Below, in pieces: positions 5,905-12,484 of a DNA stretch of 32,031 nt. Source of the stretch: a virus (lineage: Duplodnaviria > Caudoviricetes); the IMG/VR virus record IMGVR_UViG_3300025534_000027, positions 1-32,031 of that record, one strand, 5' to 3'. The position numbers and the translations under genes are program-made. Below the pieces are notes generated by a model, which was given only the letters and a program-made list of their open reading frames with translations, did no database searches and was not told the origin of the DNA. Position 1 is the first letter of the stretch; every line of letters starts with the position of its first letter.

Positions 5905-5938
5905 CCCCGCTCGGCTATACGCTGGGTGGGGATTTTTT
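5905..5938 (+). terminator. Intrinsic terminator of late/lysis operon
   Basis: CCCCGCTCGGC-tatac-GCTGGGTGGGG then ATTTTTT; sits between convergent genes. Confidence 0.75.
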
Positions 5939-6136
5939 GCTTTGGGCATACACTTCCGCCCGATCCCGTCTCCACAGCGGCCGCCCCTCGAACACCGCGT
6001 CCGGCCGGGGAAAGCGCCCCCGATAGGTGGGTTTCAGCGCCCGTTGGCCAGCCAGACTGACGTTCTGCTGGGTGGTGCCGAGGAGCCGCGCAAATTCGGC
6101 AGCGCCGATGAGTTCAAGTGGTTGGTTTTCAGTCAT
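5915..6136 (-). CDS. Small helix-turn-helix protein (AlpA/excisionase-like)
   Basis: LIGAAEFARLLGTTQQNVS HTH plus FPRPD...GRPLWRR wing; ATG 6136 overlapping upstream stop. Confidence 0.7.
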   Translation of the reverse strand: MTENQPLELIGAAEFARLLGTTQQNVSLAGQRALKPTYRGRFPRPDAVFEGRPLWRRDRAEVYAQSKKSPPSV

Positions 6137-6812
6137 TGGTGTCACCCTTTCGTTCTGCTTTTTCCAGGTACGGTTTGTGGTATTGTTCCTCGAGCGCTTT
6201 TCGGTCCGCGATCGCTTCCGCAAGCGTGCGCCGTATGGGCCCCCAAATACGTTTACCCTTGACCGAGATGTGCGCCTCGAAATACACCGTACCTTTTCGT
6301 ACGCGACGATACACGCCCTTGATGCCTGTACCGCTGTCCGACCTGACCTTTTTGGTCAGTAGCGGCACCTGTACGCCGTCAACGGTGTATTTGGTGTCGA
6401 GTGCTTGTCTTGCAGCGCGAATGTGATCGTGCTTAGAACACCCGCATGTAGCTGCTCCGCCAATGCGCAAAATGGTCGCCGTAAACGGTTGGAGGTTTCC
6501 GCATCTGTGACATTTACAGAGCCATAACGCTTGCCCACGCTCGTTCGTCCCGGCACGCTCAATCACTTCGAGGTCGCCGAAGCGCTGACCGGTTAGGTCA
6601 AGGGCATTCGGTGGCGTCCGTTTTCGCAGGCAGCCGCACGACTTTTTTCTGCCGGTCTGAAGTTGGCTCTTGGTGGCGACAGTGGTTTCGCCACAGGAGC
6701 ATCGGCAGATATATGCCTTCTCTTTTCGAACTTTTTCCGGCGACTCCTCGATGACCTCGAGCTCTCCGTACTTTTGACCGGGCATGATTTGTTGTCCTCT
6801 CAATAGCACCAC
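6129..6812 (-). CDS. AP2-domain DNA-binding protein with two Cys-rich repeats (HNH-AP2 related, no evident HNH)
   Basis: Two GQ(K/R)(Y/F)G.L.VIE...C.C..CG...(S/T)CGC repeats; C-terminal SGTGIKGVY...FEAHISVKGKRIWG...EAIADRKALEEQY AP2 motif; exact start uncertain. Confidence 0.75.
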   Translation of the reverse strand: MVLLRGQQIMPGQKYGELEVIEESPEKVRKEKAYICRCSCGETTVATKSQLQTGRKKSCGCLRKRTPPNALDLTGQRFGDLEVIERAGTNERGQALWLCKCHRCGNLQPFTATILRIGGAATCGCSKHDHIRAARQALDTKYTVDGVQVPLLTKKVRSDSGTGIKGVYRRVRKGTVYFEAHISVKGKRIWGPIRRTLAEAIADRKALEEQYHKPYLEKAERKGDTND

Positions 6813-6820
6813 CTCTACAT

Positions 6821-6884
6821 GCAGGTTGAGCGGAAGCCGCCGAAGCGGCTGCGCCGGGATTCTCGGCGCTCTCCCTAGCCCTGC
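6821..6884 (-). ncRNA. Twister-sister-like ribozyme, copy 2 (variant or degenerate)
   Basis: GCAGG GCUAG GGA GA GCGCCG-AGAAUCC-CGGCGC AGCCGC-UUCG-GCGGCU UCC GCUCAA CCUGC; identical P1 and internal loop to copy 1, covarying P2, altered hairpin loop. Confidence 0.7.
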
Positions 6885-7354
6885 GTTTTTCTTCTTCCCA
6901 ACGGATCGAGAACCGATATATCAGGTTCCGATTTCGGTTCCGGTTCCGTCGCATGGTCAACATAAAATTCAATTCCTGCTGTCTGGCTGCCCACCCATCT
7001 AATCTCATAAACCCCGAAACCTTGATCGAATCCACCATATTCTCCATAATGTTCTCTTCCTATACGGTCGAACAGCCTCTGGCTATCAAGATTATCGGGA
7101 GCTGCGAAGACTCGGTCGTATTGGCCAGAAATCCACGCGATAAATGTGCTCCCGAATCCTTTGTTGCGGTATCCGTCGTAGATGTCAATCCTGTCGATGT
7201 ATGCATCCATTCCATCACTTTCATTGTCTTCTTTGCCTTTCAAAAACTCAGTAACATATGCGTAACCAACTTTTTCTCCGTTGACATACATTACATAAGT
7301 GACGGTCTCATTTCCATCGAGATAGTACCGTCGATATTCGCGGATTTTGATCAT
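6875..7354 (-). CDS. GNAT-family N-acetyltransferase
   Basis: GGAGG RBS, ATG 7354; acetyl-CoA motif A (YIDRIDIYDGYRNKGFGSTFI) and NLDSQRLFDRIG; stop TAG lies inside ribozyme copy 2. Confidence 0.8.
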   Translation of the reverse strand: MIKIREYRRYYLDGNETVTYVMYVNGEKVGYAYVTEFLKGKEDNESDGMDAYIDRIDIYDGYRNKGFGSTFIAWISGQYDRVFAAPDNLDSQRLFDRIGREHYGEYGGFDQGFGVYEIRWVGSQTAGIEFYVDHATEPEPKSEPDISVLDPLGRRKTQG

Positions 7355-7388
7355 TTTCAACGCCTCCACTTCGTGATTTCCTGCCATC

Positions 7389-7453
7389 GCAGGTTGAGCG
7401 CCGCGCCCCTTTCGGGGCGGTCCCGGCTTGCACGGGACTGGGCCTAGCCCTGC
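7389..7453 (-). ncRNA. Twister-sister self-cleaving ribozyme (three-way junction type), copy 1
   Basis: GCAGG GCUAG GCC CA GUCCCG-UGCAAGC-CGGGAC C GCCCC-GAAA-GGGGC GC GGC GCUCAA CCUGC; all stems pair; UGCAAG loop and GCUCA cleavage strand match the twister-sister consensus as recalled. Confidence 0.9.
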
Positions 7454-7502
7454 TCGTCAGTCTCGCGGCTCCCATCCCTTCGACTCGGCGAAACGTGCAT
7501 CC

Positions 7503-7519
7503 GGCCATCGTCAGGCGGG
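7503..7519 (-). repeat. 17-bp direct repeat, copy A (CCCGCCTGACGATGGCC on minus strand)
   Basis: Identical to 7829-7845; contains the TGA stop of 7511-7726. Confidence 0.85.
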
Positions 7520-7726
7520 GATGTGGATCGTGTTCCCCATGCCGTCTTCCCAGCCATTCACGTCTTCGCCGGCGTCCAGCGCTTCGACGATCCGCTGCAT
7601 GTCGTCCAGGTCGGCCGGCGTAATCGTGGCGATCACTTCGCCGTCCTTTACTACGTCAAACTCGTGCAGGTCGTGGTCGAACGGCTTTTCCTCCACCCGG
7701 TATCCTTCGCGTTCCCAAACTCTCAT
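7511..7726 (-). CDS. Small acidic hypothetical protein
   Basis: 71 aa; GGAGG RBS; first gene after promoter 7760-7788. Confidence 0.75.
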   Translation of the reverse strand: MRVWEREGYRVEEKPFDHDLHEFDVVKDGEVIATITPADLDDMQRIVEALDAGEDVNGWEDGMGNTIHIPA

Positions 7727-8805: not shown

Positions 8806-8851
8806 TATGTCTTGGTGCATAATAGGCGATCCTTTTATTCACCAAGACATA
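8806..8851. other. Candidate attP site of the serine integrase
   Basis: 46-bp imperfect palindrome TATGTCTTGGTG-cATAAtAGGc-GA-tCCTtTTATt-CACCAAGACATA abutting the integrase stop; centre GA at 8828-8829. Confidence 0.7.
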
Positions 8852-11974: not shown

Positions 11975-12484
11975 ATGAAAAAGTACGTACTCACGGAAGA
12001 GACGAAAGAGTGGAATGGTGCCACCCTCTACCGAATCAGGGCCGTCCGTGACATCCCGGAAATCGGTGTGAAAGCCGGTGACCTCGGCGGCTGGATCGCC
12101 AGCGAGAAAAACCTTGACCAGGACGGCAACGCATGGGTGTCCGGCGACGCATGGGTGTACGGCAATGCATGGGTGTACGGCGACGCTCGGGTGTCCGGCG
12201 ACGCATGGGTGTACGGCAACGCTCGGGTGTACGGCGACGCCGTCATCGACTCGTCCGAAAAGATTTTTTGGGCATCATCGGTCGGATCGGAACGCGACAC
12301 ACTGACCGCATACCTGACTCAAGATGGCGACATCGAAGTCACACGCGGATGCTTCCGCGGGACTTTGGACGAGTTTGAAAAAGCCGTGCGAAGCCGACAC
12401 AGTGGGACACGATACGAAGAAGAATATTTAGGGCTGATCGAGTTTATCCGCCTGCGGTTTCGTGATGTGGTGAAGCCGAAATGA
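11975..12484 (+). CDS. Hexapeptide-repeat (left-handed beta-helix-like) phage protein
   Basis: LYRIRA...GDLGGWI..E.NL motif; G(N/D)A(W/R)V(S/Y) repeats; RGCFRGTLDEF C-terminus. Confidence 0.8.
   Translation: MKKYVLTEETKEWNGATLYRIRAVRDIPEIGVKAGDLGGWIASEKNLDQDGNAWVSGDAWVYGNAWVYGDARVSGDAWVYGNARVYGDAVIDSSEKIFWASSVGSERDTLTAYLTQDGDIEVTRGCFRGTLDEFEKAVRSRHSGTRYEEEYLGLIEFIRLRFRDVVKPK
12125..12241 (+). repeat. 18-bp tandem repeat array (about 6.5 units) encoding hexapeptides
   Basis: GGC-(A/G)A(C/T)-GC(A/T)-(T/C)GG-GTG-T(A/C)C units. Confidence 0.9.

Follow-up and report, generated by a model that had tools for sequence, protein, structure and literature searches.

The window analysed here, the whole stretch of 32,031 nucleotides, carries two twister-sister-like RNAs on its minus strand. 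Rfam reports only one of them (copy 1) as a twister-sister, and the question raised by the other (copy 2) is whether it is a working self-cleaving ribozyme. The first-pass annotation had left open whether copy 2 was inactivated by a deletion or represented a new variant. Our results indicate that copy 2 is most probably an intact three-way twister-sister in which both predicted tertiary pairs are swapped, and which likely cleaves itself at 6828/6827, splitting a leftward multi-gene message between a GNAT-like and an HNH-like gene. Judged by sequence, activity of copy 2 is very likely, and we do not take it for the remnant of a deletion.

Domain searches identified the window as a temperate phage with genes for a serine recombinase, an S24/HTH repressor, a terminase, an SPP1-type portal, a holin and an endolysin. 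Its host is likely a member of the Bacillota; the named genomes with relatives of the RNA were mostly Bacillota contigs among the matches listed. Both ribozyme copies lie in a leftward run of small genes between lysin and integrase. Two promoter-like sequences in the minus strand could drive this operon: TTTACA-17-TATAAT at 8435-8407 (three such sites were found, against a chance expectation of 2.6) and TTGTGT-17-TATAAT at 7788-7760, which was spotted by eye and carries an extended TG. A 21-bp inverted repeat (8806-8851, 90% complementary, 4-nt gap) just past the serine recombinase gene is a possible att site or terminator; an 18-nt tandem repeat is found inside a YdcK beta-solenoid gene (12105-12266), and four 25-nt direct repeats within a replication-initiator-like gene (15195-15297) mark a probable origin.

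Table 1 Genes of the leftward operon, the two ribozyme copies and the parts of copy 2
Feature	Position	Strand	Remarks
Small gene upstream of copy 1	7511..7726	-	No Pfam or PHROG match
Copy 1, canonical three-way twister-sister	7389..7453	-	Rfam match 7385-7455, 61.7 bits
GNAT-like acetyltransferase gene	6875..7354	-	Pfam PF00583; phrog_21214; between the two ribozymes
Copy 2, three-way twister-sister-type RNA, double-swap form	6821..6884	-	64 nt, nt 1 = 6884; 568 nt downstream of copy 1
Copy 2 P1, 5' strand GCAGG	6880..6884	-	Pairs with 6825-6821; also codes last codons of GNAT-like gene; P1 pairs covary
Copy 2 L1, 5' strand G6 C7 U8 A9 G10	6875..6879	-	U8-A9-G10 = stop codon of GNAT-like gene
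Copy 2 P2, 5' strand GGA	6872..6874	-	Pairs with UCC 6834-6832
Copy 2 junction G14	6871	-	Expected to form the Watson-Crick contact T2 with C27 of the loop (6858)
Copy 2 P4, 6 bp and 7-nt loop AGAAUCC (6863-6857)	6851..6869	-	T-loop A22-G23-A24-A25-U26, then C27 C28
Copy 2 P5 hairpin, 6 bp, UUCG loop	6835..6850	-	Variable arm
Copy 2 L1, 3' strand GCUCAA	6826..6831	-	Cleavage predicted at the C-A step 6828/6827, which corresponds to C62-A63 / C54-A55
HNH-endonuclease-like gene	6129..6803	-	phrog_374, E 1.9e-36; directly downstream of copy 2
Small DNA-binding-like gene closing the operon	5915-6136	-	phrog_597

The GNAT-like gene has its likely start at 7354, after a GGAGG site, in an ORF open from 7387. 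Its product terminates as TQG-stop inside copy 2, the stop being U8-A9-G10 of the L1 loop (6877-6875). The one distant homologue found (P0003) ends six residues past the same DPLG motif and in the same register, which argues that TQG-stop is the natural end of the gene and not a read-through. A search with the GNAT-like protein for syntenic loci returned a single locus, whose protein was 100% identical to that of the window. The HNH-like gene would start at TTG 6803 or ATG 6785, about 18-36 nt past P1 of copy 2. Judged by eye, a gene resembling that at 7511..7726 is also located upstream of a ribozyme in a Paenibacillus locus (L274), and a small gene resembling the phrog_597-like gene comes after an AGAAUGC ribozyme in locus L430.

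The 65-nt core of copy 1 is letter for letter the printed sequence of Rfam member URS0000D6A998 (supplement of PMC11620745), and the construct crystallised as 5T5A is closely similar to it. Copy 2 reads, in the minus strand, GCAGG GCUAG GGA GA GCGCCG AGAAUCC CGGCGC AGCCGC UUCG GCGGCU UCC GCUCAA CCUGC. Alignment of both copies confirmed what the first-pass annotation had described: no letter differs in P1 or in either L1 strand; P2 covaries, GCC/GGC of copy 1 being GGA/UCC in copy 2, with one pair retained and both partners replaced in the other two; P4 and P5 have other sequences that still pair, with GAAA replaced by UUCG; and the P4 loop changes from UGCAAGC to AGAAUCC. All the catalytic-loop bases are unchanged and the 12-nt 3' ends are identical. 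Absent from that description was the change behind the altered loop, namely that junction C14 is G14 (6871) in copy 2. Minimum free energy (MFE) folds gave the same three-way junction and 7-nt P4 loop in both copies (-33.3 and -34.7 kcal/mol); the fold energy relative to shuffles (z -2.25, 7 of 200 shuffles as good) is weak evidence when taken alone. P1 and L1 were lost from the MFE folds of both copies when flanks were included, and from that of copy 1 with 10-nt flanks too. In copy 1 the 3' strand of P1 can pair instead with a downstream GCAGG (CCUGC-GAUG-GCAGG, 7380-7393, minus strand); this hairpin wins in the flanked MFE folds and would cap the 5' end of the 3' product.

Six pattern scans of sequence samples yielded at least 453 loci, from which a descriptor extracted 177 distinct cores. 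Of these, 153 fold well; a parser requiring no loop letters sorted them into 122 three-way cores with a 7-nt loop, 22 four-way cores and 9 cores without a 7-nt loop. The 121 three-way rows used below exclude a tandem-repeat row (L250), and the 105 rows exclude in addition 16 rows with P2 GUU/AAC. One scan selected for AGAAUCC, and base 14 was fixed by none. The P1-anchored scans, in which no inner letters were set, listed 153 distinct matches: 81 parsed, 65 chance-like coding and 7 ribozyme-like but imperfect, as judged by eye. Note that the near-neighbour, L1-UAG and Rfam-detection counts come from an earlier parse, in which the four-way L208 stood among the three-way cores and some three-way rows, including L013 and L014, among the four-way ones.

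We trained a covariance model on 52 relatives, none of which has a loop beginning with A; the copy 1 core was among them, that of copy 2 was not. The model gave copy 2 63.3 bits (E 2.6e-15, E-values being rough), and its best chance match in the window reached 8.7 bits. This score and the common fold bear out the naming of copy 2 as a twister-sister copy with natural covariation. The features of the class are present, i.e., P1-L1-P2, a three-way junction to P4/P5 and a site between phage-like genes, and so is, at the sequence level, a 7-nt P4 T-loop; the literal loop consensus UGCAAGY is absent. A setting among phage genes near other self-cleaving ribozymes has been described for twister-sister (PMC8782182, PMC6765202). 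It had also been anticipated that a standard model could miss this copy, and this proved right: copy 2 falls below the RF02681 gathering threshold (34 bits) and was reported neither in the whole window at E<=5 nor in a 151-nt stretch at E<=10. As the gathering score is the operational cut-off of Rfam, copy 2 is treated here as a twister-sister variant rather than an RF02681 match. At that score, across 40 loci (earlier parse), Rfam detected 11 of 13 canonical U22/C14-G27 cores and 2 of 18 parsed A22 copies. Of the parsed AGAAUCC cores it detected one of 10 (L020, 37.8 bits), or one of 12 when L013 and L014, both missed as well, are counted in, and of the AGAAUGC cores none of 6; the joint swap of both tertiary pairs would explain why the standard model misses copy 2.

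In the three-way structure 5T5A, loop base G27 is Watson-Crick paired with junction C14 (T2), and the T-loop has a trans U·A closing pair and receives a stacked base of L1 (PMC5660989); this T-loop comprises residues 22-26 (FARFAR2 preprint, bioRxiv 10.1101/2020.11.26.399451). Relative to 5T5A, copy 2 has G14-C27 for C14-G27 and A22·U26 for U22·A26, with G23 and A25 kept. As read from its letters, the copy 2 loop is thus a T-loop of canonical length with the closing pair reversed, and a precedent for an A-U closing pair in a T-loop exists in J1/3 of the cobalamin riboswitch (PMC6158498). The L1 bases of importance are G5, A8 and A63 in 5Y87 numbering, A7U being tolerated in that ribozyme (PMC5660989), and C7 (5T5A numbering) also matters. 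The copy 2 counterparts of 5Y87 G5, C6, A8, G59, U61 and A63 are unchanged, and the conserved L1 set (G5, C6, A8, G9, G59, C60, U61, A63) is present together with the C-A step.

Both contacts covary in the relatives. Among the matches listed, pair 14-27 was Watson-Crick in 101 of 105 three-way rows (C-G 55, G-C 44, U-A 1, A-U 1) and broken in four (C·C, G·U, C·U, G·G); in the P1-anchored scans it was Watson-Crick in 63 of 65 matches listed. The closing pair 22·26 was U·A in 48 of the 121 listed rows, A·U in 42, G·G in 21, C·A in 4, U·G in 3 and A·G in 3. G23 was kept in 121/121 and A25 in 119/121 of these rows, neither being required by the parser. When disjoint near-neighbour pairs were compared (earlier parse, among the matches listed), 15 of 16 pairs differing at base 14 also differed at base 27 (controls, 1/33), and 18 of 21 co-differed at 22/26 (controls, 4/32). 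A tree-aware test of the swaps was underpowered: three independent pairs stood on supported branches, in the expected direction (sign-test p 0.25), too few to establish formal independence. An alignment of 91 rows had 97.8% of its cells paired, versus 74.9% in shuffles (a comparison that ignores kinship) and 35-45% when slid, and 13 of the 16 helix pairs changed on both sides. The A9-U, G10-C and G11-C pairs were invariant in 91/91 rows, GCWAG and GCUCA having been fixed by the search patterns. We also considered whether the AGAAUCC loop strictly requires P2 GGA/UCC, as in a swapped base triple. This was rejected, since every loop type is found together with GGA/UCC, and L410 combines G14-C27 with GCC/GGC.

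The swapped form is widespread and takes up the same slot as the canonical one. AGAAUCC was the commonest loop among the matches listed, with 27 of 121 distinct three-way sequences, whose stems are unrelated, and 15 of 81 in the P1-anchored parsed set; single-swap loops also occur naturally (AGAAUGC 13 and UGAAACC 11 of the 121 listed). A near-identical 92-aa gene has an AGAAUCC copy directly after it in L003 and L007 and a canonical copy in L012, so the two forms fill the same slot. Gene-ribozyme-gene arrays with mixed ribozyme forms and shuffled genes were found in L006, L007, L012, L022 and L424; L325 and L424 are dense arrays, with three to five ribozymes of mixed loop types between small genes. 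No conserved partner gene was found among 35 proteins picked from 55 candidates and an ORF list of the relatives' loci, one of which had a Pfam match. A gene that follows a twister-sister in Paenibacillus medicaginis (L274:1600-2157) matches PF09652, a putative CRISPR-associated protein family, and L074 has a type II hammerhead (217-282) about 700 nt from its twister-sister copy. A subclass of 16 distinct cores among the matches listed (L006:1818-1872, L015:2369-2425, L422, L424 and others) has P2 GUU/AAC, a longer junction (CUAG, CAUAG, CGUAG), loops UGAAAUU or GGAAGUU and mostly C14 with U27; as C14 cannot pair with U27, T2 must there use another junction base.

The proposal that copy 2 is a decayed copy, having lost 4 nt from a longer T-loop hairpin, started from the first-pass statement that four inserted letters (GGUG) give such a hairpin on paper. 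We find it hardly credible. With its 7 nt the native loop is of canonical length as it stands, AGAAUCC is carried on different stems by 27 distinct sequences among the matches listed, and only the native register accounts for G14. The lengthened form had no match in viral contigs, and a looser pattern for it gave one unstructured chance match (L011) in at least 453 loci and none among the 153 P1-anchored matches listed. As for a 4-nt indel, four of 24 sequencing runs were compared, all as contigs: one X3 contig spans 6655-6880 and agrees with the window throughout, gaps included, and none of the four runs lists an insertion at copy 2.

Two further readings were considered. The native fold might have been kept while the double-swap form is slow or inactive, serving as structural punctuation, i.e., as protective 3' hairpins or as a handle for cassette recombination. 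A22·U26 indeed cannot keep the U·A geometry of the crystal, the genes between copies differ across loci, and one X2 contig passes directly from 6820 to 7389 at the shared 12-nt 3' ends and so lacks the GNAT-like gene and copy 2; with 30 letters on its short side this is a weak case of possible cassette loss by recombination. We nevertheless regard mere punctuation as unlikely, given the invariant A9-U, G10-C and G11-C pairs and the retention of G23 and A25 (see above), and a T2 that stays paired through repeated swaps fits selection on a docked, active fold. Still less probable is that copy 2 belongs to a different ribozyme class that has the L1 loop in common and docks P4 by another mechanism. 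The poor detection of A22 copies by Rfam would agree with this, and unrelated cores resembling twister-sister do have the same L1 loop (PMC11620745). The canonical and swapped forms, however, are connected by continuous single-step intermediates and occur side by side in the same arrays, and copy 2 scores highly with a model trained without A22 loops. An active twister-sister with both contacts swapped thus remains our preferred reading.

By analogy with the 5T5A and 5Y87 structures, U8 of such a ribozyme would dock into the T-loop, G14-C27 would lock P4 onto the junction, and hydrated Mg2+ together with G6 and C7 would support cleavage. The whole reading frame of the GNAT-like gene would stay on the upstream piece, together with the hairpins of P4 and P5. 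The downstream piece would carry a 5'-OH at its first nucleotide, about 24 nt ahead of the following start codon, and separate stabilities would thus be possible for the two genes. Cleavage would in this way split the operon message into single-gene pieces; processing of polycistronic messages by bacterial self-cleaving ribozymes has been suggested but left undefined (PMC6765202). Folds of the 3' products gave nothing clear as to release of a ribosome-binding site on cleavage. RNA runs X15 and X16 provided 5 and 2 short contigs (depth 2-7), none over 6827/6828, and contigs cannot show ends.

The position of the stop codon within L1 extends beyond this locus. Of the 92 three-way cores among the matches listed (earlier parse) that have 250 nt or more of upstream sequence, 33 use the L1 UAG to end an ORF of at least 45 codons, and these 33 cases, that of the window included, have 33 distinct upstream peptides; other same-strand UAGs ended such ORFs in 168 of 1871 cases (9%; Fisher p 9e-12). 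Long frames entering L1 were in the UAG frame in 33 cases and in the other two frames in 15 and 11 (p 3e-4). In GCAAG copies the UAG-register frame was open in 0/13, and in other copies a stop codon lay 7 or 8 nt before L1 (17 and 10 cases). An RBS-like motif and a start codon followed within 70 nt downstream in 80 of 106, a count made without a chance control; all these figures refer to the matches listed. The sequence fits two views of this overlap, as the result of mere compaction or as a true gate on translation. If there were a gate, a terminating ribosome would unfold the active site, and the operon would be cut only without upstream translation or before ribosomes arrive. We put forward tentatively, as a possibility well short of an even chance, that three-way twister-sisters are translation-gated cutters, in which the one freely changeable base of L1 becomes U and makes the upstream stop, carried in exchangeable gene-ribozyme cassettes with canonical and swapped forms mixed per array.

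The swapped form is probably new. We found no account of these swaps or of the L1 stop codon in the full-text literature searched; Weinberg et al. 2015 and Liu et al. 2017 lie outside that search, and a member named env-33 in the 2015 alignment (cited via PMC11620745) suggests that this alignment is larger than the set shown by Rfam and may already include such variants. The relatives give natural covariation support for both tertiary contacts of the three-way crystal structure, and they reveal tolerated T-loop closing pairs (U·A, A·U, G·G and C·A), i.e., ready natural mutants for work on the mechanism of a poorly understood ribozyme. Since the commonest loop in our sample is largely invisible to Rfam, twister-sister is presumably under-counted in phages and prophages. 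The L1 stop codon could offer a direct handle on the role of bacterial self-cleaving ribozymes in operons.

Among known systems, copy 2 most resembles the three-way twister-sister (RF02681, 5T5A; PMC5660989, PMC7373991), with which it shares P1-L1-P2, the three-way junction to P4/P5, L1 GCWAG/GCUCA, a 7-nt P4 loop with G23 and A25, the G21-C29 closing pair, the C-A step and the location between phage genes; it differs in G14-C27, A22·U26 and P2 GGA/UCC. The three Rfam members printed in the supplement of PMC11620745, unlike copy 2, all have C14 and UGCAAGC. The four-way twister-sister (5Y85/5Y87, PMC5660989) has the L1 core, the T-loop intercalation (T1) and the cleavage step in common with copy 2, but possesses an extra helix, P3, and its T2 is a base triple of G35 and not a Watson-Crick pair; the four-way relatives among the matches listed kept GCAAG and UGCAAGY or UGAAAGC, in a scan that fixed P2 as GCC/GGC. 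The class II cobalamin riboswitch J1/3 (PMC6158498) has, like copy 2, a five-nt loop with A1-U5 closure that receives an intercalating base, although it belongs to another RNA class and its A-U pair is trans Watson-Crick with a syn U.
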